Below the pieces are notes generated by a model, which was given only the letters and a program-made list of their open reading frames with translations, was not told where the DNA came from and searched no databases. A DNA stretch of 26,444 nucleotides from a virus (Duplodnaviria > Caudoviricetes): positions 1 through 26,444 of the IMG/VR virus record IMGVR_UViG_3300010220_000006; one strand, written 5' to 3'. Position 1 is the first letter of the stretch, and the number at the start of each line of letters is the position of its first letter. The translations under genes and the position numbers were made by a program. This document shows, piece after piece, positions 1 to 16,959 of this stretch.

Positions 1-3
1 AGC

Positions 4-59
4 TTCTAACTTGTCGTTCAAGCCGACGCCTACGGCGCGGCTTAATTCAGGTGTTGGGC
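4..59 (+). repeat. attC site 1
   Basis: TTCTAAC-TTGTC-GTTCAAGC-CGACGCC-TAC-GGCGCG-GCTTAAT-TCAGGT-GTTGGGC. Extra C and A on the top strand correspond to the canonical extrahelical G and T on the bottom strand. Resembles the aadA-type attC as I recall it. Confidence 0.92.
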
Positions 60-343
60 CGCAGGGATGGGCAATCATGGTTATCGCACGCCCGGAGATA
101 ATGGTCGCGGCACGCCGAGCGATCGCAGTCCGGCATGTCGTTCGCCATCCGCGTGTTTTCCAGCCGATCAAGCACGCCAAAATAATTCCGGTTCCTCAAC
201 TCAGCTTCTCCGTAGCGCTCCAGCAGTTCCCAATCGCCGTCGGTTGCGAGCGGCTTGTAAATCCCGGCTGGTATTCGCCGCGCCAATGCGCCGCCTTGCT
301 GTGCGCGCTTGATTTCATCCCATGTGTATCCAAAGATAGTCAT
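47..343 (-). CDS. Hypothetical protein (cassette 1), 98 aa, Cys/His-rich C-terminus
   Basis: ORF track 47..382 starts at a TTG inside attC2. ATG at 343 has a GGAGA Shine-Dalgarno 7 nt upstream and is preferred. Stop TGA lies inside attC1. Confidence 0.7.
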   Translation of the reverse strand: MTIFGYTWDEIKRAQQGGALARRIPAGIYKPLATDGDWELLERYGEAELRNRNYFGVLDRLENTRMANDMPDCDRSACRDHYLRACDNHDCPSLRPNT

Positions 344-364
344 CTGCAAATCTCCGGGCCAGCG

Positions 365-422
365 GCCCAACAATTCATTCAAGCCGACGCCGTTCCGGCG
401 CGGCTTAATTCAGGCGTTGGCC
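365..422 (+). repeat. attC site 2
   Basis: GCCCAAC-AATTC-ATTCAAGC-CGACGCCG-TTC-CGGCGCG-GCTTAAT-TCAGGC-GTTGGCC; textbook R''/L''/L'/R' boxes with both extrahelical bases. Confidence 0.95.
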
Positions 423-1219
423 GTCTCAAACAGCCCTTGCGCAGGGCATCGCGGGGAAAGCCAAAGGCACTCCACGCGGTCCCGCGCTCCATCGGCGTGA
501 GCGTGACGTTCCACGCACCGCCAGTCCTTGTAGAGCGCGTCGTACAGCGCGCTCCGGTAGCCGCTCAACACCACCGGCCCGCGCAGCTTGTGCAACGTCT
601 CGGCCAGCGCCTCATGGTCGGCGTCCGTCATTTCGTGGCGGTAGTCGCCGCCCTTGTCCCTCGTGGCCGCAACGTAGGGCGGGTCAACGTAGTGCACCGT
701 TTCTTCCCCGTCGTGCGCCGACATCACGGCCGCAGCTTCCCGGTTCTCGATCACTACACCCCGCAGGCGCTCTATCACGTCGCCAAACGCACCGGGGTAG
801 TTCCTCCAGTCGTGCGCGGGCGACGTGCCGCTGCGGTTGCTGTTCGCCCGAAAGCCGGTAGCCTTGTTGTGGGCGTTCGAGCCAAATCCCATAAAGGCCC
901 GTGCAACGGTGCGCCGCGCCTGCTCCAGCGGATCCGTGGTTTCGTGGTAGCTATCGAAAAACTCGTCCCGCGCAAACGGTGTCAGTTCCAGCGCCCTCCG
1001 CAGCTCGTCGCCGCGATCCCGCGCCACGCGAAACAGATTCACCACCTCACCGTCAAGGTCGTTGTACACCTCGCAGTAGCTGCGGGGTTTCTTCAACAGC
1101 ACGCTTGCCGCGCCGCCGAACGGCTCGACATAAACGCGGTGCCGGGGAAGGTGCGAAATAATCCAGTCCGCCAGCTTCCACTTGCCGCCGTGCCATCTGA
1201 GTATCGGTCGTTTGCACAT
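410..1219 (-). CDS. dam: DNA adenine methyltransferase, Dam/D12 family (cassette 2)
   Basis: LRWHGGKWKLA N-terminus, SAM-binding YVEPFGGAASV, EVYNDLD, catalytic YVDPPY. Stop inside attC2. Target sequence cannot be read from the protein. Confidence 0.92.
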   Translation of the reverse strand: MCKRPILRWHGGKWKLADWIISHLPRHRVYVEPFGGAASVLLKKPRSYCEVYNDLDGEVVNLFRVARDRGDELRRALELTPFARDEFFDSYHETTDPLEQARRTVARAFMGFGSNAHNKATGFRANSNRSGTSPAHDWRNYPGAFGDVIERLRGVVIENREAAAVMSAHDGEETVHYVDPPYVAATRDKGGDYRHEMTDADHEALAETLHKLRGPVVLSGYRSALYDALYKDWRCVERHAHADGARDRVECLWLSPRCPAQGLFETANA

Positions 1220-1232
1220 AGTCTCAGTCGCC

Positions 1233-1295
1233 GGCCAACCCGGCGCTCAAGCGGGACCGTCCGCAAGCGGCCGGCCCCTTAGCTCTGCGTTAGAG
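1233..1295 (+). repeat. attC site 3
   Basis: GGCCAAC-CCGGC-GCTCAAG-CGGGACCGTCCGC-AA-GCGGCCGGCCC-CTTAGC-TCTGC-GTTAGAG. Confidence 0.92.
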
Positions 1296-1966
1296 GGCTT
1301 CTTACCGCCACGCTCCAGCACCAGAAAATAGCTGTGGAAAATCCGCGCATGTTTCTGTGTACCTGCTCTGTTCGGTGAAGGTAGCCTGTGCTTTGCTGGC
1401 AGCACAAACAAATCCATCAGCCTGAATCCTTCAATCTCTGCCCAAAAAATCACATTGGCATGTGTGCAGTGCATCTTGTGGTTGTGGATAATGTCTTGGC
1501 ACTTGAACACCATCACCCCGCCCGGCTTCAAAACCCGATAGGCTTCGCTTATCGTGTGGCGGTAGTGTTCTTCCAGTTCATCGTAGCGCCAATATCCGGC
1601 AAACCGCTTCGCCATAATCATCGAGCCATTGCCCTCGCGTCCAGCGCGAACGTAGGTCAAAAACGGCGGGTCAAAAACCACGCTTCCTAGTGTCTGTGAC
1701 GCAAGCGGAAGCATGGTGCTGCAAGCCTGCTCCACCCCATCGAGTTGCGGGTCAATATCAAACTTGTGCTTTGGCTGCGGCAGGTTATGCCAAAACTTCC
1801 CGTTGCCATAGGTCATGTCGCAGTCAAACCCGTCAGGGCAGTGCAGCTTCATAATTCCGCGCAAAATCTCGTCCTGCTCAAAATACACAGAGCGCACCAC
1901 TTCGGCTTTCTCTTTTGTGGCGCTGGCTTCCGCTGGCTCCGTCACTGCTAAACACTGGTAGTCCAT
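1247..1966 (-). CDS. Putative amino (N6A/N4C) DNA methyltransferase, phage type (cassette 3)
   Basis: Motif I-like DMTYGNGKFW, catalytic-like VVFDPPF, EAYRVLKPGGVMVFKCQD; SD AAGGA upstream. The C-terminal 14 aa are translated from attC3. Confidence 0.8.
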   Translation of the reverse strand: MDYQCLAVTEPAEASATKEKAEVVRSVYFEQDEILRGIMKLHCPDGFDCDMTYGNGKFWHNLPQPKHKFDIDPQLDGVEQACSTMLPLASQTLGSVVFDPPFLTYVRAGREGNGSMIMAKRFAGYWRYDELEEHYRHTISEAYRVLKPGGVMVFKCQDIIHNHKMHCTHANVIFWAEIEGFRLMDLFVLPAKHRLPSPNRAGTQKHARIFHSYFLVLERGGKKPSNAELRGRPLADGPA

Positions 1967-1987
1967 AGTTTTCCTTTAGTTCCCGCC

Positions 1988-2051
1988 CTCTAACATTGCG
2001 TTCAAGGCCCGACCGCGCTAAAGCGCGTCGGCCTTAACTTCACCGTTGGCA
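1988..2051 (+). repeat. attC site 4
   Basis: CTCTAAC-ATTGC-GTTCAAG-GCCCGACCGCGCT-AA-AGCGCGTCGGC-CTTAAC-TTCACC-GTTGGCA. Confidence 0.9.
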
Positions 2052-2782
2052 GGCAAAAGCATGTCGCCCTGCACCGCCGTATCGCCAGCGCCGACTTTTG
2101 CGTCCTCGAACAGCCTGCCCTGCCGCTGCGCGTCCTCTATGCGGCGGCGGGCGATGTCGAAATACTTGGGTTCGCGCTCGATGCCGATGAACTCGCGGCC
2201 AAGGTTCGCGCAGGCCACGCCGGTAGTGCCGCTGCCCATGAAGGGGTCGAGGACCGCACCACCTGATCTCACGCTGGCGAGAACTTGGCGCTCCATCAGC
2301 CAAACCGGCTTTGGCGTCGGGTGATCTTCTTTCTCTGCTGTCGGCCCTCGCCACACTGGCGACTTGCAGAACTCGGCGAAATGGGCGCCCGCCCGCTTCC
2401 CGTACACGCAAGCCTCAATGGCCGACAGCCAAATATGCTGGCCGTTCATTGGGCTGGGGTTGGACTTCTCCCAAATGCACAGCCGGGTCGAATATCCTGC
2501 TGCGACCATTCCGGCGCGAAGTTGGCTAACCTGCTCGATGCCGCACCAGACATAGACGGACTCACCAAGCAGCAGAACCTTCAAGACTTCGGACAACTCG
2601 CAGGTTTCAATGTCGGCCGCCCCCTTATCGAGATTCCGAAGGCCGCCCGATGCTCGATTTACTTCGCCGTAGGGAATGTCCGTAATCACCGCGTCCACCT
2701 TCGGCAGCGTCGGCAGTATCTCGCGGCAGTCGCCCAGGTAAAGCGTGCAATTCCCGATTGTCACTTTCTCAGCCATCATCAC
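2018..2782 (-). CDS. N6A/N4C DNA methyltransferase, beta class (cassette 4)
   Basis: LYLGDC, DAVITDIPY (DPPY variant), HPTPKPV, VLDPFMGSGTTG, FIGIERE. True start may be ATG 2776 or 2779 (GGAG upstream). Stop TAG inside attC4. Confidence 0.9.
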   Translation of the reverse strand: MMMAEKVTIGNCTLYLGDCREILPTLPKVDAVITDIPYGEVNRASGGLRNLDKGAADIETCELSEVLKVLLLGESVYVWCGIEQVSQLRAGMVAAGYSTRLCIWEKSNPSPMNGQHIWLSAIEACVYGKRAGAHFAEFCKSPVWRGPTAEKEDHPTPKPVWLMERQVLASVRSGGAVLDPFMGSGTTGVACANLGREFIGIEREPKYFDIARRRIEDAQRQGRLFEDAKVGAGDTAVQGDMLLPANGEVKADAL

Positions 2783-2801
2783 TCCGTAGTTACGTTTTGC
2801 C

Positions 2802-2864
2802 TGCCAACACGTCGGTCAAGCGGACGGCGGAAAAGCACCGCCGCCGCTTACCTTGGCGTTAGTC
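2802..2864 (+). repeat. attC site 5
   Basis: TGCCAAC-ACGTC-GGTCAAG-CGGACGGCGG-AAAAGCA-CCGCCGCCG-CTTACC-TTGGC-GTTAGTC. Confidence 0.92.
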
Positions 2865-3026
2865 GTCATCCAGTTCATCGTTTTCCAGCAGCGCCATCCG
2901 CTCGTCAACAATGTCCCGAATCCGATCAACCGCCATCCGCGTCCGTTCATTGTCGATCCCGTAATATCGCAAAAGCTGGCGGCATTCCTCAAACAAGTCC
3001 TGGCACATCTCGCGCTCTGTTGCCAC
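2859..3026 (-). CDS. Small acidic hypothetical protein (cassette 5), about 55 aa
   Basis: ORF track 2859..3044. GTG at 3026 is preceded by GAGGAG (6 nt spacing) located in attC6. Stop TAA overlaps the GTTAG core of attC5. Confidence 0.6.
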   Translation of the reverse strand: MATEREMCQDLFEECRQLLRYYGIDNERTRMAVDRIRDIVDERMALLENDELDDD

Positions 3027-3086
3027 GTCTAACTCCTCATTCAAGCGGGACGCGCTAAAGCGCGCCCCTTAATTCATGCGTTAGGC
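3027..3086 (+). repeat. attC site 6
   Basis: GTCTAAC-TCCTC-ATTCAAG-CGGGACGCGCT-AA-AGCGCGCCC-CTTAAT-TCATGC-GTTAGGC. Confidence 0.94.
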
Positions 3087-3346
3087 CACACGGGGCGACC
3101 GCCGCGCACTTCACCGGCCCACTGATCTGGCGTCGTGATGTCGTCTCCGTAGTCGAGGATGTTGGGCTCTGTGTCGCGCTCACCGATCAAGAGCTTCGTG
3201 CGCTCTGCCTCGTAGGCCACTCTGTTCCAGTATTCTCCGCGATCCATCTCACCGGCTTTCCAACCGCCTGCACTTGTTTTTCTTGTAAATAGACCAGTAT
3301 GTTGATCGTAATCAAGTCTTTGTTTTAATTCAGACTGAGTAATCAT
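3074..3346 (-). CDS. Chimeric ORF: HNH homing-endonuclease-like N-terminus fused to an unrelated C-terminus
   Basis: MITQSELKQRLDYDQHTGLFTRK resembles phage HNH endonuclease N-termini, but no HNH motif follows. AT-rich 5' part, GC-rich 3' part; SD AGGAG; stop in attC6. Confidence 0.6.
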   Translation of the reverse strand: MITQSELKQRLDYDQHTGLFTRKTSAGGWKAGEMDRGEYWNRVAYEAERTKLLIGERDTEPNILDYGDDITTPDQWAGEVRGGRPVWPNA

Positions 3347-3358
3347 CTTGTCTCCTTT

Positions 3359-3634
3359 TTACAAATAATCCCAACTATGCGCCTTCGCCCATAACATCGG
3401 CTCGTCATTCAGCCGGTGCCATTTCTCGCCGCGCTCATGCTTGCCGTCAATGTCGTAGTACGCTTCGTCAATCCGTGTGTATACATGCCCCATGATCGGG
3501 TCATACCAGGCTTCGGCCAGCGGGAAAAGTTCTTTCAGCACACGGTATAGCTGGAAGCATCCGCCGTTGCTGAAACGATTCTCTGCGTTGACGATGCCGA
3601 TTCTTACGGCTGCGATTATCTCTATGGGGGTCAT
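3359..3634 (-). CDS. Phage hypothetical protein, 91 aa
   Basis: ATGA overlap with the upstream methylase; NGGC...GHVY...YYDIDG pattern. Confidence 0.75.
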   Translation of the reverse strand: MTPIEIIAAVRIGIVNAENRFSNGGCFQLYRVLKELFPLAEAWYDPIMGHVYTRIDEAYYDIDGKHERGEKWHRLNDEPMLWAKAHSWDYL

Positions 3635-5058
3635 GCCGCTATCCTCTCGGATTGCACCTCACGAACCATCTGGATGCGTTGGCCTATCCAGCGCATAACC
3701 GGAACGGCCATCGAATTACCTAACGCCTTATACATTGCGCTGTCGCTTGCTCCTGGCACTTTAGATAGGTAATCGTCCGGGAATCCTTGAAGTCTGGCGC
3801 ATTCAGTTGGAGTAAGGCGGCGGACCTGCATGCTTTGCATCAAATATGTTTGTTGTTTCATTCCTGGCTCTGCGGCCAGCGCACCAACTACATCCATAGT
3901 CCTCACCTCGTCACGCTGATTTTGCGCAAACGCTACAGCAGGGCTTTTAGACTTATCCAGCGTAGGGCATACCGTGTCAGGATTCATGCTTTGTGTGGTG
4001 CTGGCTTGATGGTGGAAGGCGACTGCATGCTGATCTGTTTTTGTCAGGCAATGCGATACATCGTGCATAGGCTCGACAGCATTGCCGCCGTTCTCTGGTG
4101 ATCGACCAATCCAGTTGCCTGGTATGCCGTAGCTAATCAAGTCAGTCGCGTCTTTGTAGTCGCGTTGTTTCAATGATCCTGCGAGATCGTCATCAACGTA
4201 CTCACCGAAAGCAACCATGCGATTGGTGGTGATACAAAAATCTAACTCGTTGGCGTTTCCTGCTGGCCTTGTTGTTCCGCCACCATTTGCAGCGAGTGTT
4301 CCAGCAACGACAGGAACAGGCACTATCAACTCATCCTTGCTATCTCCGCTTCTGGCTCCATGCCCTTTGCCACCGTTTGCAGCGCCTGCTCTAATTGTTG
4401 GGGCAACTTCTTGCCCCTTTTCTCGGCTCGGCGCAGGATGCCCCTGCAAGCTGTGGCGCTCAAAAAGTACCGGCAGTCTATCAATCCAGTTTCCAAAATC
4501 TGCGAGAGCGAACATACGTCTGCGTCTTTGTGGAACTCCAAAGTATTGCGCGTCCAAAGTGCGCCATTCGAGAACCCCTGTTTCGCTGGCAGCAACTCCG
4601 CTGTTTTGCCATCCGTTTTTTGGTACAGCAAATTCGGTGTCAAGGATTTCTCCAACCATTGAAGCAAAATCGCGTCCATTGTTTGATGAATAGATGCCTG
4701 GCACATTTTCAAGGAGCAACCATCTTGCATTTGTCCATCTTGCGATTTGCAAGGCTGTGTAAAAAAGTCCAGACCTAGTTGCGCTTCCATCTGCATTTTT
4801 TAACCCTTTTCTTAATCCAGCCACACTCAAATCTTGGCAAGGAAATCCGCCTACAACCAAATCAATATGCCCCAATGATTTAATCTGCTCTTGCGTGATT
4901 TTTGTGATGTCGCCAAGATTTGGAACATCAGGATAGTGGTGTGCCAATACCCTGCAAGGAAACGGATCGATCTCAGCAACGGCAGCGCATTCCCAACCCA
5001 AAGGCAACCACGCAACACTTGCTGCCTCGATTCCACTAAATAAAGATAAGAACTTCAT
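3631..5058 (-). CDS. dcm: DNA (cytosine-5) methyltransferase
   Basis: Motifs I (LSLFSGIE), IV (GGFPCQDLS), VI (ENVPG), VIII (PQRRRR), IX (RRLTPTECARLQGFP), X (YKALGNSMAV); long variable region. Confidence 0.95.
   Translation of the reverse strand: MKFLSLFSGIEAASVAWLPLGWECAAVAEIDPFPCRVLAHHYPDVPNLGDITKITQEQIKSLGHIDLVVGGFPCQDLSVAGLRKGLKNADGSATRSGLFYTALQIARWTNARWLLLENVPGIYSSNNGRDFASMVGEILDTEFAVPKNGWQNSGVAASETGVLEWRTLDAQYFGVPQRRRRMFALADFGNWIDRLPVLFERHSLQGHPAPSREKGQEVAPTIRAGAANGGKGHGARSGDSKDELIVPVPVVAGTLAANGGGTTRPAGNANELDFCITTNRMVAFGEYVDDDLAGSLKQRDYKDATDLISYGIPGNWIGRSPENGGNAVEPMHDVSHCLTKTDQHAVAFHHQASTTQSMNPDTVCPTLDKSKSPAVAFAQNQRDEVRTMDVVGALAAEPGMKQQTYLMQSMQVRRLTPTECARLQGFPDDYLSKVPGASDSAMYKALGNSMAVPVMRWIGQRIQMVREVQSERIAA
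4326..4796 (-). CDS. Overprinted ORF inside dcm, similar to the M.EcoHK31I beta polypeptide
   Basis: 156-aa alternative-frame ORF on the same strand, AAGGG upstream of the ATG. SLKM...WTRNTLE...CSLSQILET...FLS...GILRRAEKRGKKLP resembles the beta subunit as I recall it. Confidence 0.6.
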   Translation of the reverse strand: MQMEAQLGLDFFTQPCKSQDGQMQDGCSLKMCQASIHQTMDAILLQWLEKSLTPNLLYQKTDGKTAELLPAKQGFSNGALWTRNTLEFHKDADVCSLSQILETGLIDCRYFLSATACRGILRRAEKRGKKLPQQLEQALQTVAKGMEPEAEIARMS

Positions 5059-5534
5059 TTGCCAGCCTCGTGTTCAATTCGATGACAATTAGGGCAAATA
5101 ACCTCACCATTAGAAATGGTGTTAAGTCCACCTTTGCATCTAGGTAAAATATGATGAACATCGCACGTTGCTTTATTCCATCCACAACGTGAGCATGAAT
5201 TGCCTTTTGCTTTTCTAACTGCCTCAGCCCATGACTTTCGGTTTTTATAATTTTTATTGTCGGAATGAATTTGATATGTTTTTCCTGAATTCCAAGATGA
5301 TTTTGGCTTTCTTGAAACTTCTGATCTCAAACATCCACAAGATTGAGTTCCTTTTTTATTGCCTGAACGAAAATTATTGCTTTGAACTAGGCATTTATTT
5401 CCGCATTCGCACAAGTACTCCCATAAAACATGTCCATCAGACGACCTTCCAGATTCCTTAACTACAGTGAGGCGACCATATTTAATGCCAGTTCTATTCA
5501 CGGCGTTTCCACGCTTTATGACTTCGTTAATCAT
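5055..5534 (-). CDS. HNH homing endonuclease
   Basis: N-terminal YGRLTV...W.YLCECG...SCGCL module and C-terminal CSRC...DVHHILP...GGLN...N...CPNCH; AT-rich; ATGA overlaps at both ends. Confidence 0.88.
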   Translation of the reverse strand: MINEVIKRGNAVNRTGIKYGRLTVVKESGRSSDGHVLWEYLCECGNKCLVQSNNFRSGNKKGTQSCGCLRSEVSRKPKSSWNSGKTYQIHSDNKNYKNRKSWAEAVRKAKGNSCSRCGWNKATCDVHHILPRCKGGLNTISNGEVICPNCHRIEHEAGK

Positions 5535-5758
5535 GCTTTCACTCTCCATGTCGCCCATTTCTTTCCCGCCTTCATCGCAATCTTTCGCGATCGGGTTCCG
5601 CCCATACTTGCGTTTTGTTTCAGAGGCAGCTTTACACCTTTCTTCTCAAGTTTGTTCAGTGTGTAAGAGCTGATTCCCAAGTCCTTCATCATTTGATTCC
5701 TGCTGTTGTACGGATTCGCCTGCATGTAGGATTCGATTCTCTGGATCAGGTCGTTCAT
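5531..5758 (-). CDS. Small basic HTH-like protein
   Basis: SD GAGGTG; SRNQMMKDLGISSYTLNKL is HTH-like. Confidence 0.65.
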   Translation of the reverse strand: MNDLIQRIESYMQANPYNSRNQMMKDLGISSYTLNKLEKKGVKLPLKQNASMGGTRSRKIAMKAGKKWATWRVKA

Positions 5759-5933
5759 TTTTCACCTCTGCTATCAATTCCAGCATGGCGGCTTCCCCAT
5801 GCTCTGCCTTGTACGCTTTCAGCCATTGCCTTGCTGCCGGTTTGTATGCGGCTCGAAGCCACTTGACCTGGCAGCAGCGGTTGTTCATGTTGAACGTCCA
5901 CTTCAGCCCCTTTGCACAGAATTCGCATGTCAT
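5646..5933 (-). CDS. Hypothetical protein (CxxC...CC)
   Basis: ATGA-coupled to the P-like gene; 3' end overlaps the next gene by 113 nt. Confidence 0.55.
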   Translation of the reverse strand: MTCEFCAKGLKWTFNMNNRCCQVKWLRAAYKPAARQWLKAYKAEHGEAAMLELIAEVKNERPDPENRILHAGESVQQQESNDEGLGNQLLHTEQT

Positions 5934-6418
5934 GCGGCCTCGATGGCTTGTTTTGCAAACCGAGCAGCAATGTCAGAAACAGTCCTGTCACCGTCCTTGA
6001 CGCGCTGGATAATGGCGTGCGCCCAGTCTTTCATGCCGCGCTCCTGCTTCTTCTGCAACTTCTCGGCCTCGGCTTGCAAACGCTCGTGGTTACGCTCGAT
6101 TTCCTCGGCGGTGAAGTGCCTTGGCAGCGCCTTGGTTATTTCACCTGGTTTCATGGCGGCACAAATCCGCTTGAACTCAGGCAGCGTTGGCGGGAACTGC
6201 AGGTTGTCAGCGCAGTGATTGATTGCCTTGCCAATCTCCATCAGCGAGAACTTCGCAAGTCCTGCAGCCCATTCGTCCTTGACCGAATCCATCGGAATAT
6301 CCGCCCACATATCCAGCCAGTGCTTGCCGTACAGACTAGCCATTCGAAGAAAGAGCCGGTCTATCGCCTGTGGCGGAATCACTTGATACGTCGATGATTC
6401 TTGGCTTGTGGTTTCCAT
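5930..6418 (-). CDS. Replication protein P-like (helicase loader)
   Basis: Directly downstream of the initiator; LFLRMASLYG..W and FPPTLPEF motifs typical of lambda P-like proteins. Confidence 0.7.
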   Translation of the reverse strand: METTSQESSTYQVIPPQAIDRLFLRMASLYGKHWLDMWADIPMDSVKDEWAAGLAKFSLMEIGKAINHCADNLQFPPTLPEFKRICAAMKPGEITKALPRHFTAEEIERNHERLQAEAEKLQKKQERGMKDWAHAIIQRVKDGDRTVSDIAARFAKQAIEAA

Positions 6419-7286
6419 CGGTTAAATCTCCAAACATGGCTTTTGCGGTTGCGGTTCGTTTGTCGTGTACGGTTTGATTTTTTGGCGGCGCCGTCTTGTT
6501 CTCGTATCTGCCCTCGATGATCTTCACGAAGTTTTCAGACTTCGTAATCCACTCAAGGTCTGCCTGAAAGCTTGAAGTCTTGCCAGTAAGGAAATCTGAT
6601 TGCGCAACGTAAGCAAAAAGCCTTTCCCAATACTCAAGGTTTTGTCGTTTTGGATCTTCTCTCCAGCGTGATCGAAGTTGATTCGCCCTTTTCTCCGTCC
6701 AAGACTTAACCCTAGTCAGCATAGGCAAATGCTTGTGATAGAGATTGATGATTTGTTGATGAGGGCAAGCGTCACCGACTTGTTCGGGGACAATAGGTTT
6801 TTTACTGTTACTGTTACTGTTACTGTTACTGTTACTGTTACTGGTTAAGGAAGGGTTGTCTAACGGTTCGCCAACTGTTCCAGTTTTCGTGTAATCTAAT
6901 CCTAAAAAGTAAGCGTTGAGCCGCATGTACTCTTGTTTCCAGCTACATTCATCTGGTATTGACTCAGCGATTCTCTTGGCGCTTTTGAGTTGATTTGGGT
7001 TCTCAGGCTTGTTCCAATTGAAGTACTTGCAAATCCATACCCATTTGGTGGTTTCGCAACGTTTAGCGAAGCCCTTATCTAACAGTTCTTTAAGGGTTGA
7101 TTTAACCCTTTCTAAAGCCCATTGAAGGTCGTCGCAAACATAACCATCTGGCAGTCTAAAAACGCCTGATATAGTTCCGTGAGGGCACGTTAGTAAATAC
7201 ATAGCCATTGCCCTGGCATCCTCGCTCATGGTGCGAGTTGTTTGGCTTGTCCAGAATGATGTATAGACTTTCCCGTAATCACGCAT
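6336..7286 (-). CDS. Phage replication initiator (O-like)
   Basis: MRDYGKV..SFW N-terminus, low-complexity linker, C-terminal ADLEWI...NFVKIIEGRY; canonical position after cro/cII. Confidence 0.85.
   Translation of the reverse strand: MRDYGKVYTSFWTSQTTRTMSEDARAMAMYLLTCPHGTISGVFRLPDGYVCDDLQWALERVKSTLKELLDKGFAKRCETTKWVWICKYFNWNKPENPNQLKSAKRIAESIPDECSWKQEYMRLNAYFLGLDYTKTGTVGEPLDNPSLTSNSNSNSNSNSNSKKPIVPEQVGDACPHQQIINLYHKHLPMLTRVKSWTEKRANQLRSRWREDPKRQNLEYWERLFAYVAQSDFLTGKTSSFQADLEWITKSENFVKIIEGRYENKTAPPKNQTVHDKRTATAKAMFGDLTDGNHKPRIIDVSSDSATGDRPALSSNG
6802..6843. repeat. (TTACTG)x7 perfect tandem repeat in the initiator linker
   Basis: 42 bp read directly from the sequence; encodes an SN dipeptide run. 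Confidence 0.95.
6851..7110. promoter_or_regulatory. Putative replication origin iterons
   Basis: Heptamers at 11-12 bp period: AAGGGTT 6851, AACGGTT 6862, AACTGTT 6873; second cluster AACGTTT 7058, AGCCCTT 7070, AACAGTT 7081, AAGGGTT 7092, AACCCTT 7104. Confidence 0.5.
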
Positions 7287-7288
7287 GT

Positions 7289-7408
7289 TTATTCCAAACT
7301 TTCTCTCAGGTAGGAGTTGTGTATCTGGCTTGCAATTACATCTAAATCAAATCCTTTTTTCTGCCAGCGCGGATCTTTTAGTTTTTCTGAATATGTTTTA
7401 TTAGCCAT
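7289..7408 (-). pseudogene. 39-aa ORF, probable internally deleted HNH endonuclease
   Basis: MANKTYSEKLKDPRWQKKGFDLDVIASQIHNSYLRESLE with SD AAAGG; YSEKLKDPRWQKK is a typical HNH-protein leader. Not in the ORF track. Confidence 0.55.
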
Positions 7409-7421
7409 CACAAGCCTTTCA

Positions 7422-7736
7422 TCACGCCGCCACCTTCTGCTCTCTGAACTCAAACAGGTTGGAGTAACGTGGATGCCGAAGTGCGAACAGCCTTGCTAGA
7501 TATGGCACAAAGTTCCCGTTGATCTTGTATTCACCCTTCAACTCACCAATAGCGGTGTCGTGACGGATGACCTCAACGATCGTCCTGGCCGAGTAGTGCT
7601 CACGCTTCGATGCGACCTTTAATGCTCGACGCTCGAACTCTTCCCAGATGTGGAAGTTCTCCATCAGCCATTCAGGGAAGTCGTCACGGAACATGTCTTT
7701 GTTGGAAAGAATTGTGTTGAGGATAATGAGCTTCAT
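7422..7736 (-). CDS. Phage hypothetical protein
   Basis: 104 aa, strong SD AAGGAGG, in operon order. Confidence 0.8.
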   Translation of the reverse strand: MKLIILNTILSNKDMFRDDFPEWLMENFHIWEEFERRALKVASKREHYSARTIVEVIRHDTAIGELKGEYKINGNFVPYLARLFALRHPRYSNLFEFREQKVAA

Positions 7737-7766
7737 ACGCCCTCCTTGAATCGACCTTTTCTAGCC

Positions 7767-8003
7767 CTATTCCTGCACTTCAGGTCTAGCACCGGTTGCC
7801 TTCATCCTTAAGACGTGAAATTGCCCATAAAGGTGAGCTGTGATGACATCTCTTAGATACTCGGATGATGACTGCCCGGAAAGCTGCGCAAGTGCGACAA
7901 ACTTCTCTTTCACATCCTCTGGCACCACTGTCTTAAGTTCCTCGGTGCATTTGCCCAGAGGATGCGATGTGCCAGACCGTGAGAAAACTGAATCTGTACC
8001 CAT
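7767..8003 (-). CDS. Ribbon-helix-helix-like regulator in the cII position
   Basis: ELKTVVPEDVKEKFVALAQLSGQSSSEYLRDVI fits an RHH pattern; SD GGAG. Confidence 0.7.
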   Translation of the reverse strand: MGTDSVFSRSGTSHPLGKCTEELKTVVPEDVKEKFVALAQLSGQSSSEYLRDVITAHLYGQFHVLRMKATGARPEVQE

Positions 8004-8122
8004 AAAGTTTCTCCAATTAGAGTTATTTGACGACTTCCCTTTTTAATGAACCCGATGGCAGATCCATTAAAAAGCGCCCTGCTAACAAGGCGAAATGCAC
8101 CAATTAGGGGGCAATTGGTGTC

Positions 8123-8353
8123 CTATGCGGCGTTGCTTAATTCAGGCCAGATATCCATCCAATCATCTGGCCTAAGTTCCTTCCGGGTGACAGCGCCGTC
8201 AGTGATCTTCTCGATGGCCACGCACTGCATGATCGGCACAGGCCGGATTCCTGATATCCATTGGTTGACGGCAGGCGTAGTGACTTTGAGCGATCGTGCG
8301 AGCGCTGCCTGCCCACCCATAAGGGCGCATGCTTTTTCAATTGCAAAACTCAT
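8123..8353 (-). CDS. cro: Cro-like repressor (YdaS family HTH)
   Basis: GGQAALARSLKVTTPAVNQW...IEKITDGAVTRKELRPD; divergent from cI; ATG 8353 follows the PR -10 box. Confidence 0.9.
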   Translation of the reverse strand: MSFAIEKACALMGGQAALARSLKVTTPAVNQWISGIRPVPIMQCVAIEKITDGAVTRKELRPDDWMDIWPELSNAA

Positions 8354-8360
8354 GCTGGTA

Positions 8361-8389
8361 AATTTAGCACGGCTAAAGGAACGAATCAA
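8361..8389 (-). promoter_or_regulatory. PR promoter
   Basis: TTGATT (8389-8384) - 17 bp - TAAATT (8366-8361); cro ATG 7 nt further on. Confidence 0.75.
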
Positions 8390-8425
8390 GCCATGCTAAA
8401 TAATTTTGCTATTAGCATCGCTTTA
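8363..8425. promoter_or_regulatory. OR operators (three 15-bp sites)
   Basis: TTTAGCacgGCTAAA 8363-8377, TCAAGCcatGCTAAA 8386-8400, ATTAGCatcGCTTTA 8411-8425; the same motif recurs at OL. Confidence 0.85.
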
Positions 8426-9150
8426 TGAAGAGTGACGACAGTAAAAGACTAGAGGATCTGTTCCGACGGGTGCGGATGACTAAGGCGGAATTCGCTCGCA
8501 CATATAAGATTCCGGGCGGCGCTTCTATGGTTAGTCAGCATCTGAGTGGCAATAGACCGATCAGTATGGACGCTGCGATTGCTTATGCACGCGGCTTCGG
8601 GTGCAGTATTGCTGATATAAGTCCAAGGTTAGCGGCTGAAGCAAAGGCGCTAGCCCAAATGGTGAACGACGACCTGATCACCAATCCAACCGCTTCGCAT
8701 GAGCACGAGGAAGACGACAGCGACAGCATCTCTATCGACCTTATGAATGCATATGGATCGATGGGTGGCGGCGTGGATATTGAATCTGAAGACTTGGCAA
8801 TCGAGAGATTAAGGATAAACAGAGCATGGGCTGCGGAGAACCTGAAGCCTATAACCTCACTCAATAATCTGTATTTCATTCACGCTCTTGGCGACTCAAT
8901 GACGCCAACTCTTGATCACGGCGACATCGTCCTGGTTGACGTCGGCATTAAGAATGCTATGGTTGATGGCATCTATGTATTACGCGCATGCCAGCGCCTA
9001 TTCATTAAGCGGGTTCGCACTCGTCTAGACGGTGCGCATGAGATCAGTAGTGACAACCCGAACGTGAAGACGGTTGATATCTTAAACGGTGACTATGATG
9101 TCGAGATCGTGGGGAAGGTGGTGTGGGTATGGAATGGAAAGAAGGTCTAA
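8425..9150 (+). CDS. cI: CI repressor (HTH + S24 autopeptidase)
   Basis: N-terminal HTH; GSMGGG cleavage-site region, GDSMTPTL (Ser), LFIKR (Lys), IVGKVVW. Confidence 0.93.
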   Translation: MKSDDSKRLEDLFRRVRMTKAEFARTYKIPGGASMVSQHLSGNRPISMDAAIAYARGFGCSIADISPRLAAEAKALAQMVNDDLITNPTASHEHEEDDSDSISIDLMNAYGSMGGGVDIESEDLAIERLRINRAWAAENLKPITSLNNLYFIHALGDSMTPTLDHGDIVLVDVGIKNAMVDGIYVLRACQRLFIKRVRTRLDGAHEISSDNPNVKTVDILNGDYDVEIVGKVVWVWNGKKV

Positions 9151-10818: not shown

Positions 10819-11009
10819 ACATCCGACAACGCATGAAGAAGCGTGAAAAGTCACGATCAGAAATGTGCAAGTGTTCGGCATATCCGTTTGGTCATCGCAT
10901 GGGTGGCGGGAAATGCCACAAAGAAAAATTGATGAAAATCGTGCCAGTGCCTTATTACATGACGCAACAAGCCATGTATGACGCAGGGCATAAACCGGAG
11001 GACTTCTAA
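10815..11009 (+). CDS. Small Cys/His-containing protein
   Basis: CKCSAYPFGHRMGGGKC; coupled start/stop overlaps. Confidence 0.7.
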   Translation: MNIRQRMKKREKSRSEMCKCSAYPFGHRMGGGKCHKEKLMKIVPVPYYMTQQAMYDAGHKPEDF

Positions 11010-11633: not shown

Positions 11634-12449
11634 ATGAGTAACTCAGTCGCCGAGGTCAAGCAGCAATTTTCACTCGCACCAAAGAGCATAGACGAAGCTT
11701 TGCGCTTCGCTGATATGTTAAGCAAATCAAACCTTGTGCCTAAAGAGTTCAACGGCAACCCTGGCAACATCCTTGTTGCGATTCAATGGGGGATGGAGCT
11801 TGGACTGCAACCAATGCAAGCCATGCAGAACATCGCCGTGATCAGTGGCCGTCCATCGTTATGGGGAGACGCTGTTATCGGAATCGTCAAGGCTTCGCCG
11901 TTGTGCGAATACGTCGTTGAGGAAACGACCGACACTCAAGCCGTTTGCAAGGTGAAGCGCCGTGGAGAGCCAGAACAAGTGCGCATCTTTACTTCGGAAG
12001 ATGCAAAGAAGGCGGGGTTGCTTGGAAAACAAGGCCCGTGGACGCAATACCCGAAGCGCATGATGCAGATGCGTGCGCGTTCGTGGGCGCTTCGTGACGT
12101 GTTTCCTGATGTTCTGCGAGGCATGCCGATCGCCGAAGAACTTATGGACATCGCTGAAAAGGATGTGACGCCTCAAAGCAATCCAGCGCCAAAGCCGGAA
12201 CCAAAACCGCTTGATGATGCTGCATTCAAGGCGCTGGAAACTAAATTCAAAATCCATATCGAGAACGGCAAGAGGTCGGCAGACGACATGATTGCTTGGG
12301 TCGAAGGCAAAGGATCCGTCATGAGCGAAGCACAAAAGTCCGAGGTGCGCTCATGGGCCAAGAGGCCGGAAGTGATCGATGGCGAAGCAAAGCAAGTTGA
12401 CGATCCGTTCGTAGCTGACATGAACAATGCAGAAGGAGAAGAGCAATGA
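11634..12449 (+). CDS. recT: RecT-like single-strand annealing recombinase
   Basis: GMELGLQPMQAMQNIAVISGRPSLWGD, W..YPKRMMQMRARSWALRDVFPDVLRG. Confidence 0.85.
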   Translation: MSNSVAEVKQQFSLAPKSIDEALRFADMLSKSNLVPKEFNGNPGNILVAIQWGMELGLQPMQAMQNIAVISGRPSLWGDAVIGIVKASPLCEYVVEETTDTQAVCKVKRRGEPEQVRIFTSEDAKKAGLLGKQGPWTQYPKRMMQMRARSWALRDVFPDVLRGMPIAEELMDIAEKDVTPQSNPAPKPEPKPLDDAAFKALETKFKIHIENGKRSADDMIAWVEGKGSVMSEAQKSEVRSWAKRPEVIDGEAKQVDDPFVADMNNAEGEEQ

Positions 12450-14146
12450 TTACGCATAATCTGATTCAAGGTTCAAAGGAATGGCACGCGCACCGCGCAA
12501 CGCACTTCAACGCCAGCGACGCGCCTGCAATGCTTGGCCTGTCGCCGTACAAGTCGCGGTCGCAACTTCTTCATGAACTCAAGACCGGCATCACGCCGGA
12601 AGTGGACGAGTTTACACAGCGCCGCTTCAACGATGGACACAGAGCCGAGGCGCTTGCTCGCCCGATTGCAGAAAAAATCATCGGTGAAGAACTCTCGCCT
12701 GTCGTCGGCACGGAAGGAAACTTGAGCGCCAGCTTCGACGGCATGACATTTATTGGCGACGTGATTTTTGAGCATAAGCTGCTTGCTCGCAGGCTGGAAG
12801 AAGTGGTTTGGGTTTCTGACAATGCCGAGGACTTCCTGCCGGAGGATTACCTGGTACAGATGGAGCAGCAACTGCATGTATCGGGCGCTGAAAAATGTTT
12901 GTTTATGGCTTCAAAGTGGACAGACGAAGGCACGCTAATCGAAGAACGCCATTGCTGGTATTACCCGAACATGTCGCGCCGCCAGCGCATCAGCGACGGC
13001 TGGGCGCTGTTTAAAAAAGATCTGGACGCCTATGTGCCGGAGCCTGTCGCTGAAAAAGCGGTCGCCGCAGAAGTAGAGGCATTCCCTGTTCCTTCGATCC
13101 AGGTCAAGGGTGAACTGGTTGCCTGCAACCTGTCCGAGATTACTCCGAAGTTCGACAAGTTTCTGGCAGAAACCAAGACCGAACTGGTCACGGATCAGGA
13201 CTTTGCTGACGGCGAAGTCAATGCCAAGGCAAGCCGGGAAGCGGCGAAGAACCTTAAACTGACAGCAAAGGCCGTGATTGACCAGATTACACCGATCAGC
13301 GAAGCCGTGCGCACGCTGGAAGGCTATGCAGCAAAGTTCGACGCGCTCGGCTTGAAGTTGGAAAAGGCCGTGAAGGAACAGAAAGAAGCCATCAAGACAG
13401 CGGCAATCCTCAAGGCTCGCAACGACTTTAACGCGCACATCGAGCAGCTTGAGGCTGAAACAAAGCCGATTCGCCTTAATCTTGCACAGCCTGACTTCGC
13501 CGGTGCGGTCAAGGGCGTCAAGACCATCAAGAGCCTGCACGGCAATATCGCGGACGAACTGGCACGGTGTAAGGCAGCAGCGGAAGGCGCTGCGCGGGAC
13601 ATACGAGCAAAGCTGGCGTGGTGCAAGGAAAACGCAGAAGGCTACGGCATGCTGTTCCCTGACCTGCAACAGATCATCGGCAAGGAAATGGACGACTTCC
13701 AGCTTGTAATTAAAACGCGCATTGATGAACACAAGCAACTTGAGGCCGAAAAAGAAGCCAAGATCAAGGCAGAAGCCGAAGAAGCGGCGCGTTTGAAGAT
13801 TGAGGCAGAGGCGAAGGCAGGGCACGAAAAGACAATCGAGCAAGCTGTTGTTTCTGGTACTGGATTTATGAAGGTTGACGTTGATGGAAATTCTGTAAAG
13901 GCAACGAACATTCCGGCGCAAGACATAATCGACACCGGAAACCGCATCAAGCTGGGCGACATTAACTCTGCACTTGGCTTCACGGTTTCAGGCGACTTCC
14001 TGGCATCGATTGGTTGGCCGGCAGTTGCTAAGGACAAGAGTGCCCTGCTCTACCGTGAAAGCGACTTCCCAGCGATATGCGGCAGTATCGTTGAGCATAT
14101 CGTCGAAGTATCCAGTAAACGTCAATTTAAGAAAGAGGCAGCGTAA
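12446..14146 (+). CDS. YqaJ/lambda-exonuclease family protein with a long coiled-coil extension
   Basis: [37 protein letters not shown] motifs; adjacent to recT. Confidence 0.88.
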
Positions 14147-15599: not shown

Positions 15600-15815
15600 A
15601 CATAAATTGAACACATCGCCCTGAAACCAGCATTTAAACAAGGAACCCGAGTCCTCTTCTGGGCACCATATTAAACACTCCAAAACCAGCATCCACAAAG
15701 GCTTTCGAGACGTTTTGCCTAATTATTAATCATTCCGTCATACCCACAAATCTACACACTTTTGCACATACTTACACTATCATGTGAACACAAATTGTAC
15801 ATAAAAATGAACACA
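15597..15815 (+). other. attP: tRNA-Leu 3'-end core (15648-15668) flanked by arm-type repeats
   Basis: Core CGAGTCCTCTTCTGGGCACCA is a T-loop/acceptor/CCA end of a tRNA-Leu type. TGNACAYA repeats at 15597 and 15608 (left) and 15763, 15785, 15796, 15808 (right). Confidence 0.85.
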
Positions 15816-15827
15816 TGATAGGGGGCA

Positions 15828-16799
15828 ATGGTGGCATCTATCCAGAAGCATGGTGATGGATGGCGTGCGCTCGTTCGTAGAAAGGGTATCACTAAAACAA
15901 GAAAATTCCCAACGAAAGCGCAGGCTGTGGCATGGGCGGCAAAGGAAGAGACCGAGATCCTTGAATCAATGTCTGGGTCTATACCGAAAAAGACGTTCGG
16001 TGAGTTACTTGACCGATACGCAGATACCGTCTCGGTGAAGAAAGCCGGGGAGCGGTGGGAGCGCGTTCGCATCAATTTAATCAAACAGGATAAGATCGCC
16101 AACGTCATGCTGGCTGATCTTAACCAATCAGACTTTGCCGCATGGCGCGACCGGCGATTGAAAGAAGTTAGCGCAGCGAGCGTAAGACGCGAATGGAACC
16201 TTCTGTCTAACGCATGCACGATTGCGCTATATGAGTGGAAATGGCTGCGCGAGCATCCAATGAAAGGCGTGTCCAAGCCTGCGCCTCCGCCGCCGCGTGA
16301 CAGGTTGGTGAGCCAGGAAGAGATCGAAGCGATACAGTTCGCACTTGGCTATGTTGGCGGTCAGGCAGAAACCAAAAGTCATCGCGTTGCGCTCGCGTTT
16401 GAGTTTGCATGCGAAACAGCGATGCGCGCTCAGGAGATATGCAATCTTCGACTTGATGACATCAATGGTCAGACAGCTACCATACGCAAGTCAAAAACTC
16501 GCGCTGGCGTCCGCGTCGCTCCGTTGACGCAGCGAGCCGTCGAGATATTGAAATTGCTGCCAGATGAAAACCTGTTCGACCTGACAACGGCGTCGCTTGA
16601 AGCGATGTTCAGGAAGGCCAAAGCAAAAGCCATGATCGATGACTTGCATTTCCACGATTCACGGCACGAAGGGATAACCAGACTGTCAAAGAAACTGAAC
16701 GTGCTAGAGTTGGCAAGAGCGGTCGGTCATCAGGATCTGAGGCAATTGCTCATCTACTACAACGAGAGCGCTGAGGATATAGCCAAGAAGTTGCGTTGA
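15828..16799 (+). CDS. int: Phage integrase (tyrosine recombinase)
   Basis: Catalytic R (AMRAQE), K (KSKT), HxxR (FHDSRH), H (VGH), Y (IYYN); no IntI-specific insertion evident. Confidence 0.95.
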   Translation: MVASIQKHGDGWRALVRRKGITKTRKFPTKAQAVAWAAKEETEILESMSGSIPKKTFGELLDRYADTVSVKKAGERWERVRINLIKQDKIANVMLADLNQSDFAAWRDRRLKEVSAASVRREWNLLSNACTIALYEWKWLREHPMKGVSKPAPPPPRDRLVSQEEIEAIQFALGYVGGQAETKSHRVALAFEFACETAMRAQEICNLRLDDINGQTATIRKSKTRAGVRVAPLTQRAVEILKLLPDENLFDLTTASLEAMFRKAKAKAMIDDLHFHDSRHEGITRLSKKLNVLELARAVGHQDLRQLLIYYNESAEDIAKKLR

Positions 16800-16854: not shown

Positions 16855-16959
16855 ATGGGCAAACTCTTTATGGTCTTCTGGTGGGTGGTGCTTGGCGCGT
16901 CCGCACTTTATGCGGTCATACGCGCCATTTGGTATTTCACCTCTCGTTTAATTTTCTGA
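16855..16959 (+). CDS. Possible 34-aa membrane peptide
   Basis: MGKLFMVFWWVVLGASALYAVIRAIWYFTSRLIF; TAAGAT -10-like box 6 nt before the ATG; converges on the giant ORF. Confidence 0.35.
   Translation: MGKLFMVFWWVVLGASALYAVIRAIWYFTSRLIF

Follow-up and report, generated by a model that had tools for sequence, protein, structure and literature searches.

Can a temperate phage keep part of its early operon as an integron cassette array? The question is raised by IMG/VR virus record IMGVR_UViG_3300010220_000006 (Duplodnaviria; Caudoviricetes), a contig of 26,444 nucleotides that we analyzed at its full length and refer to as the window. At its left end, from position 4 to position 3086, six elements that look like attC sites, the substrates of integron integrases (IntI), lie between consecutive phage genes. 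The six elements are genuine attC sites. Judged by its sequence organization, they form a real attC array that behaves like an integron cassette array, and it is not a canonical one because its genes are inverted. The account we consider quite probable is that these are inverted integron-type cassettes in a phage early operon, assembled by IntI through cutting at the crossover point of the GTT box (between the G and the TT, written G/TT below), and predicted to be read from the phage early promoter.

Are the six elements attC sites?

All six elements are 56-64 bp long and present the same parts in the same order: an AAC box, a 5-nt spacer, a 7-nt L'' box, a variable stem, a 6-nt L' box, a 5- or 6-nt spacer, and a GTT box. 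An extrahelical base in the L boxes, present in 6/6 sites as an unpaired C on the plus strand (in L'') and a G on the minus strand, fixes which strand recombines. The sites, with their covariance model scores, are:

attC1, 4..59, plus strand (recombining bottom strand minus): crossover after G53; 35.2 bits; part of a cassette that runs off the contig
attC2, 365..422, plus strand: crossover after G416; 54.6 bits; similar to class 1 integron attC sites
attC3, 1233..1295, plus strand: crossover after G1289; 48.8 bits
attC4, 1988..2051, plus strand: crossover after G2045; 31.7 bits
attC5, 2802..2864, plus strand: crossover after G2858; 46.7 bits
attC6, 3027..3086, plus strand: crossover after G3080; 53.1 bits

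The scores come from a covariance model of our own build (not the IntegronFinder model), trained on 24 attC bottom strands of forward cassettes in bacterial integrons, with no window sequence included. Run with filters off over the whole 26,444 bases, it reports 6 matches at E up to 1, which are these six sites and nothing else (31.7-54.6 bits, E 4e-11 to 1e-5), and the bottom strand is the minus strand of the window. A first-pass annotation, made from the sequence alone, had proposed six attC sites with full architecture and had named an attC covariance model as a way to check them; the anatomy holds at 6/6 sites, and the bacterial-trained model recovers all six.

A strict attC grammar that keeps 5/6 sites found 0 in 300 Markov-randomized versions of positions 1-3200, and an Rfam search of positions 1-4000 gave 0 matches. 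A cluster of attC sites lacking an integron integrase (CALIN) is defined by at least 2 co-oriented attC within 4 kb; here there are six co-oriented in 3.1 kb, and the array may be a CALIN or the cut-off part of a complete integron. Cassettes of plasmid class 1 integrons have attC sites that match window sites 1 and 2. In predicted folds of the bottom strands of sites 2-5 in their circular form, the recombinogenic hairpin is fully paired, unlike that of the array form of sites 1, 3, and 5 considered below.

Cassettes that read the other way

Setting the unit borders at G/TT gives five complete units, A to E, and a broken sixth one:

Cassette A, 54..416: gene 47-343, minus strand, about 98 aa, no family; stop codon in attC1; carries attC2
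Cassette B, 417..1289: Dam/D12-class adenine methyltransferase, 410-1219, minus strand; stop in attC2; carries attC3
Cassette C, 1290..2045: DNA methyltransferase, 1247-1966, minus strand; reads through half of attC3; carries attC4
Cassette D, 2046..2858: N6/N4 DNA methyltransferase, 2018-2776, minus strand; stop in the attC4 stem; carries attC5
Cassette E, 2859..3080: small acidic gene, 2859-3026, minus strand, no family; its stop is the first three bases of the unit; carries attC6
Open reading frame (ORF) F, 3074..3346, minus strand: broken sixth unit at the promoter-proximal end of the array; its final 57 residues correspond to the C-terminal half of a widespread cassette gene

In a canonical cassette the gene is on the top strand, upstream of its attC, and is read from Pc. 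None of the units (0/5) has this arrangement, and all five complete units are inverted, with their genes on the attC bottom strand and continuous with the leftward early operon. As a polarity control, a class 1 integron with a near-identical site carries its gene on the attC top strand. In other respects the units have the form of cassettes, each running from G/TT to G/TT with the attC on its R'' side. The inverted gene orientation is the defining oddity of this array. The first-pass annotation did not see it; its statement that the phage has formatted accessory early genes as mobile cassettes stands insofar as the early operon of a phage does contain integron-type cassettes here, and needs amending as to orientation.

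Genes A, B, C, D, and F end inside the neighboring site and have no stop codon of their own, while E ends on the first bases of its own unit. Such borrowing of a stop inside the next site is found for the genes in 117/291 counted cases. The last 57 residues of ORF F match 97 other proteins, mostly of about 130 residues and with site-derived ends. Its first 33 residues are an unrelated stub that replaces the front half and the attC, and that we take to resemble the N-termini of HNH endonucleases. A plus-strand ORF at 2-1282 (423-426 aa) was rejected as an antisense shadow of cassette B, because the family matches fall on the minus strand.

Three of the cassette genes, together with an upstream C5 enzyme, belong to common phage methyltransferase families. 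Orphan phage methyltransferases have an established role in shielding phage DNA from host restriction, and by analogy the three cassette methyltransferases likely protect this phage in the same way. The C5 enzyme (3631-5058, minus strand) is a fourth methyltransferase that sits just outside the array and overlaps the next gene.

Do units exchange at G/TT?

A unit that was once circular is expected to carry an R'' matching the GTT box found where the unit starts. For units A to E, R'' agrees with that box at 4, 4, 4, 4, and 3 of the four variable bases, and with the following box at 3, 1, 1, 1, and 3. The same tendency is found in 110 inverted cassettes from the fetched loci, where the own box is the better match in 81, the worse in 8, and tied in 21.

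The borders of related units tell the same story. For cassette B, identity starts at G416 in 7/7 displayed homologues, and an unrelated attC lies to the left in the 6/6 that have enough flank. Cassette B is also found at 98.7-98.8% identity as a separate module with other neighbors, in contigs of three runs from three studies; in run X2 the 98.8% copy begins at 416 behind a simple attI-like site. Homologues of cassette B occur in 80 viral loci, most of them with no attC found in the vicinity and with one strong attC site in the 80. From G2045, 57/57 bases of cassette D match in locus L445 and 56/57 in L501, behind different sites, and the far end of D is shared as well. L214 and L376 share the cassette C border at 1289, and L189 shares cassette E between both its sites. 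For the cassette A protein we found 45 homologues, of which 23 keep the terminal motif, with 22 different tails that all start at the crossover codon.

As an example of a gain, L469 and L472 are 99.98% identical upstream of the array and 96% identical downstream, and L472 has one extra cassette exactly at the attI G/TT and a second extra unit at the far G/TT. Comparing related phages at this point had been suggested in the first-pass annotation, and homologous units prove to be gained, lost, and reordered exactly there. On these alignments, the borders of homologous units fall at G/TT.

The hairpins can also be followed. Among 400 sites, pairs that share the R''-side flank have a mean hairpin identity of 0.74, with at least 0.85 in 5/18 pairs; pairs that share the R'-side flank have a mean of 0.50, with at least 0.85 in 0/12 (background 0.42). 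The hairpin goes with the R''-side gene and not with the R'-side gene, which is what recombination of the bottom strand predicts.

Exchange may also reach inside the units. The ends of cassette D recur around other genes (window 2046-2070 and 2770-2808; L445; L501; L472 5569-6108; L376 7480-7505; L292 8437-8463), and at D-type ends in L472 no more than six bases of hairpin are left between R'' and R'. Copies of cassette C at about 95% identity in runs X1, X5, and X6 keep attC4 (1988-2051) up to L'' and then continue with a different stem; this switch suggests an exchange inside attC4.

Inverted arrays in other viruses

The arrangement is not peculiar to this phage. One exact pattern, blind to gene strand, gave 127 stretches from 23/64 parts of IMG/VR. 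Taking the loci of these stretches, 80 further loci, and the window, we count 180 distinct strong sites, of which 126 have inverted genes on both sides, 15 have forward genes, and 39 are mixed or without a call. Among 40 records with inverted arrays, an IntI over the cut-off is present in 1 (L131/L209) and in 0/7 of those at least 90% complete; among records with forward or mixed sites, it is present in 2/10.

Within the relatives of the O-like protein, in 37 loci besides L391 (a second assembly of the same phage), the grammar finds sites only in L402 and L410. The L410 array has eight sites by the covariance model, and no intI after it. Another relative, L394, has the O and C5 enzyme genes and no attC sites. 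L092, L123, and L138 are each a phage in which both of the divergent early operons contain inverted arrays. L106/L107 (about 2280-2330) and L116 (about 10830-10900) are near-complete phages without IntI whose arrays end in attI-like simple sites.

Complete phage integrons

Does the enzyme ever travel with such an array? In L131/L209 it does: intI follows the array directly, shares a strand with the cassette genes, and forms part of a Mu-like early operon. A scan with an alignment of four IntI returned 272 relatives, and the best 80 were kept. Many of these best 80 of 272 have attC sites upstream with canonical polarity to intI and genes on the intI strand, and many have a conserved attI-like site about 30-210 bases before the IntI match. 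All viral IntI tested (9/9) pass TIGR02249, and phage genes, among them those for lysis, tail, terminase, or portal functions, are present at the six viral intI loci that were annotated.

In a tree with 59 bacterial IntI, 35 viral sequences form one group (Shimodaira-Hasegawa-like approximate likelihood ratio test, SH-aLRT, 97; quick search, 129 rows). When 96 bacterial rows are used, the viral group persists (FastTree 0.949, 166 rows) and includes one member from a bacterial genome, L599, which has four inverted cassettes and phage-like neighbors. The trees are midpoint-rooted, and the bacterial rows are the 30 best of 165 and the 30 best of 84 matching genomes, 40 hand-picked lower-ranking ones, and one plasmid. 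With this sampling, the integrases of complete phage integrons appear to form an almost purely viral clade. Orientation separates the two sides too: of the 63 cassettes counted in the 3 kb upstream of viral intI genes, 58 are inverted and 5 forward, whereas the 79 upstream of bacterial intI genes comprise 62 forward and 17 inverted ones, four of the latter in L599.

Some of these phages share cassettes with the window. The closest carriers of cassette B that have enough flank end in intI, at full length in L303 and, with the same attI, C-terminally truncated in L292. L445 and L501, which share both ends of cassette D, are IntI-encoding phages. There is also contact with bacterial integrons. 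In the L548 chromosomal integron, the inverted first cassette is 84% identical to a phage-array gene, and one site is nearly identical to attC3. Of 13 inverted cassettes in chromosomal integrons, some of them doubtful gene calls, 1 has a homologue in the viral loci examined. Inverted first cassettes of phage type are seen in bacterial integrons at L535 2599-3788, L548 808-1346, and L528 447-683; we take the L535 integron to lie beside a recO-like gene and that of L548 beside an sdhB-like gene.

The trees also contain a second all-viral IntI group (25 rows, support 0.936), mostly co-oriented with the upstream genes and with few sites by the grammar. Its members include L437, L438, L441-L443, L446, L451, L454, L456, L459-L461, L464, L467, L470, L475, L476, and others. 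In L450 (9000-9573) and L441 (about 8100), attC sites also occur downstream of intI. LexA boxes are found upstream of intI in 7/55 bacterial, 1/31 clade, and 3/39 other viral sequences.

Why has the clade not been noticed? Only 9/50,697 deposited phage records match a clade IntI, the best at 56% identity, and this scarcity may be the reason. A deposited virus, KX853513 (L577 4680-5678), has an IntI-like gene annotated as xerD that is co-oriented in a methyltransferase operon, with no attC by the grammar.

The phage around the array

Family matches in the window (cI/cro, O- and P-like genes, RecT/RecE, SSB, an xis-like gene, and a phage integrase) identify a lambdoid temperate phage:

3359..8389, minus strand: PR-type early operon leading into the array, with cro-like, O-like, P-like, HNH, C5 methyltransferase (3631-5058), and YunG-like genes
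8425..9150, plus strand: cI-like repressor with an S24 peptidase domain
11634..14146, plus strand: RecT-like and RecE-like genes, by family matches, which bear on the possibility of homologous recombination weighed below
15648..15668, plus strand: attP core candidate, 21 nt identical to the 3' end of tRNA-Leu(CAG)
15828..16799, plus strand: phage tyrosine integrase, without the IntI insertion and with no TIGR02249 match

The 21-nt copy of the tRNA-Leu(CAG) 3' end sits between xis and int, and there are no tRNA genes in the window, which together make an attP arrangement. The attP-core pattern (at most 1 mismatch) matches 133/201 genomes of one order, and the four exact matches examined are that tRNA. 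This agrees with the first-pass annotation, which had placed the array in the distal PR operon of a phage with an intact attP. The phage integrase was considered as the cassette enzyme and ruled out, since it is without the IntI insertion. A promoter scan gave 3 sites against 6.5 expected, and no terminator-like site was found on the minus strand below 5105.

Two other features stand apart from the array. A protein of more than 3,100 residues, cut off by the contig end, is encoded on the minus strand of 16937-26444; it has LPD1, LPD5, LPD38, and polyvalent ADP-ribosyltransferase domains and is likely an injected counter-defense protein. A Ser-Asn repeat in the O-like protein (about 6800-6870, minus strand) possibly marks origin iterons within the gene.

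How would the array work, and with whose integrase?

In the mechanism that we propose, IntI would cut the folded attC bottom strand at G/TT. Newly acquired cassettes would be inserted at an attI lying beyond position 1, at the end far from the promoter, and older ones would come to lie ever closer to the promoter. The phage early promoter would read through the array toward attI; because the operon runs in that direction, only inverted genes would be expressed, and promoterless cassettes would thus be readable. In related phages intI follows attI on the same strand, and it would be switched on with the early operon, under the phage repressor. With a replication fork moving along with transcription, the attC bottom strand would here be the lagging-strand template, an orientation that favors folding and excision according to the available part of PMC5371416.

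The first-pass annotation had the enzyme supplied in trans. This is not established, because the contig stops where related phages carry attI and intI; base rates make it somewhat more likely, as 39/40 inverted-array records are without an IntI over the cut-off. In the likely host order, 162/401 sampled genomes have an IntI over the cut-off (this tally and the 133/201 above include two genomes marked unpublished, G349 and G081). Base rates thus favor borrowing, and the closest cassette-sharing phages favor an own gene. On balance we lean, without great conviction, toward an integrase borrowed from the host or from another phage rather than one encoded past the contig end.

What speaks against assembly by IntI?

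Several observations weigh against the account given above. The window contains neither intI nor attI, the contig ending 3 bases before attC1 on the side where both would lie, and L391 ends at window position 4137, before the array. The minimum-energy fold of the bottom strand in array form leaves the R box of sites 1, 3, and 5 unpaired, unlike the recombinogenic form, and the fold of site 3 is no more stable than its shuffles (z -0.5). Among the contigs of five runs, none extends across the whole array, and none shows an entire cassette cleanly excised from this phage; these contigs gave separate modules and cross-matching repeats, and their joints were not used as evidence. The gene strands in related loci come from our own gene caller, which calls most bacterial cassettes forward. 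Finally, the more distant homologues often have another hairpin although their gene ends are retained, and the ends of cassette D enclose different genes. Exchange at G/TT alone does not explain this, and homologous exchange probably acts as well.

Could homologous exchange account for everything? In that case the phage RecT/RecE would swap modules by repeat homology, and the attC-like elements would be linkers and not IntI substrates. Both genes are in the window, and hairpins and gene interiors have been exchanged within conserved ends. Yet the breakpoints fall on one base, G/TT, between sites that are only about 42% identical to one another, an insertion is seen at attI, which is no attC repeat, and many related arrays end in attI and intI. 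We regard this as improbable; homology-driven swapping probably acts alongside IntI, not instead of it. We give a somewhat better, though still small, chance to a frozen relic, built by IntI in an ancestor and no longer reshuffled in this lineage, in which the hairpins would persist as stop-start linkers only. Such a relic would fit a contig without intI, the 39/40 inverted-array records without IntI over the cut-off (7/7 of those at least 90% complete among them), the truncated intI of L292, and the broken promoter-proximal cassette F. It fits less well with L-box pairing kept and good scores at all six sites, with the nearly identical copies of cassette B beside other neighbors in three runs of three studies, and with the frequency of IntI in the likely host order.

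A third possibility is that faulty excision, or an error of assembly, attached part of an integron from the host chromosome to the phage. In its favor, the sites are of a type found in host integrons, attC3 is almost the same as a site of the L548 chromosomal integron, the contig breaks at a repeat, and captures of this kind in Vibrio prophages are described in PMC9892861. However, host cassettes are mostly forward (62/79), whereas all units here are inverted and have phage-type genes, and strong sites in viral loci have inverted genes on both sides in 126/180, against 15 forward. The attP is intact, 12 kb away. The cassettes of the window occur in 1/401 bacterial genomes, the center genome itself, and in none of the 400 other sampled genomes of the likely host order, with two candidates scored per genome. 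Of the alternatives, this is the one to which we would assign the least probability, a very low one. Inverted cassettes assembled by IntI remain the account that we prefer.

What it would mean

Integrons have been treated as bacterial devices, and lately as stores of anti-phage genes. What is new here are complete phage integrons in IMG/VR (inverted cassettes together with attI and a true IntI gene oriented like the early operon), an IntI clade that appears almost purely viral, near-identical phages that differ by a cassette at attI, and cassettes B and D shared with such phages. Phages likely have a gene-swapping system of their own, a version of the bacterial one. We would go further, as a proposal that we rate better than even and hold less firmly than our account of the window: temperate phages may have made the integron their own, as a separate domesticated lineage with a phage-specific IntI clade, a conserved attI, a shared pool of early-gene cassettes carried back to front, and a repressor-controlled operon that would reshuffle counter-defense genes at induction. 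Arrays without an integrase would share that pool, inverted cassettes would leak into host integrons, and phage operons would give birth to cassettes.

If this is true, bacteria and phages shuffle genes by one and the same chemistry in their arms race and are able to trade cassettes with each other. Some of the mosaicism seen in phage early regions would then have a site-specific mechanism behind it, and the variable protein tails in phage annotations would be explained by ends borrowed from sites. The origin of cassettes could also be put to the test in such phages, because these gene families include members with attC borders and members without.

Comparison with known systems

The first-pass annotation did not know attC arrays as a standard phage feature; in this it was overtaken by the literature, as phage attC clusters with methyltransferase cargo are already published. 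In 10,705 phage genomes, Qi et al. 2023 (PMC9892861) report 17 CALINs and 3 complete integrons; the cargo included orphan DNA methyltransferases, and IntI1 recombined 5/6 of the phage attC sites tested. Those systems resemble the window in having attC clusters in phage genomes and the same kind of cargo. They differ in that the text describes a typical bacterial array structure and host-captured integrons, where the window has inverted genes. The main text and part 1 of the supplement mention no inverted genes or phage IntI lineage, and the figures or the Dryad file may show orientation. When we re-examined two of those phages, the array of TJE1 was forward and that of ctTUS972 inverted. Our literature search, with most subscription journals outside its coverage, found no description of inverted phage arrays or of a phage IntI clade, and the accessible parts of PMC8876359, PMC8618304, PMC8946536, PMC13323075, and 10.64898/2026.09.14.751636 contain nothing on either.

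The integrons with an inverted integrase in Treponema and elsewhere, as the available portion of PMC4889954 presents them, likewise have intI and the cassette genes on one strand. There, intI is flipped relative to attC; in phage arrays it is the genes that are flipped, and the relation of intI to attC is canonical. With the orphan DNA methyltransferases of phages, the window genes share their families and differ in being packaged as cassettes.

With canonical integrons, whether class 1 or the chromosomal ones of Pseudomonadota, the phage arrays have in common the attC anatomy, the polarity to attI and intI, the G/TT crossover, a hairpin that moves with the R''-side gene, and, in related phages, an IntI that passes TIGR02249. 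They differ in that the genes often end inside the next site, and in that they lie on the bottom strand, which is the intI strand, and would be read from a phage operon toward attI. Because the operon runs in that direction, the newest cassette of a phage array would be the promoter-distal one.

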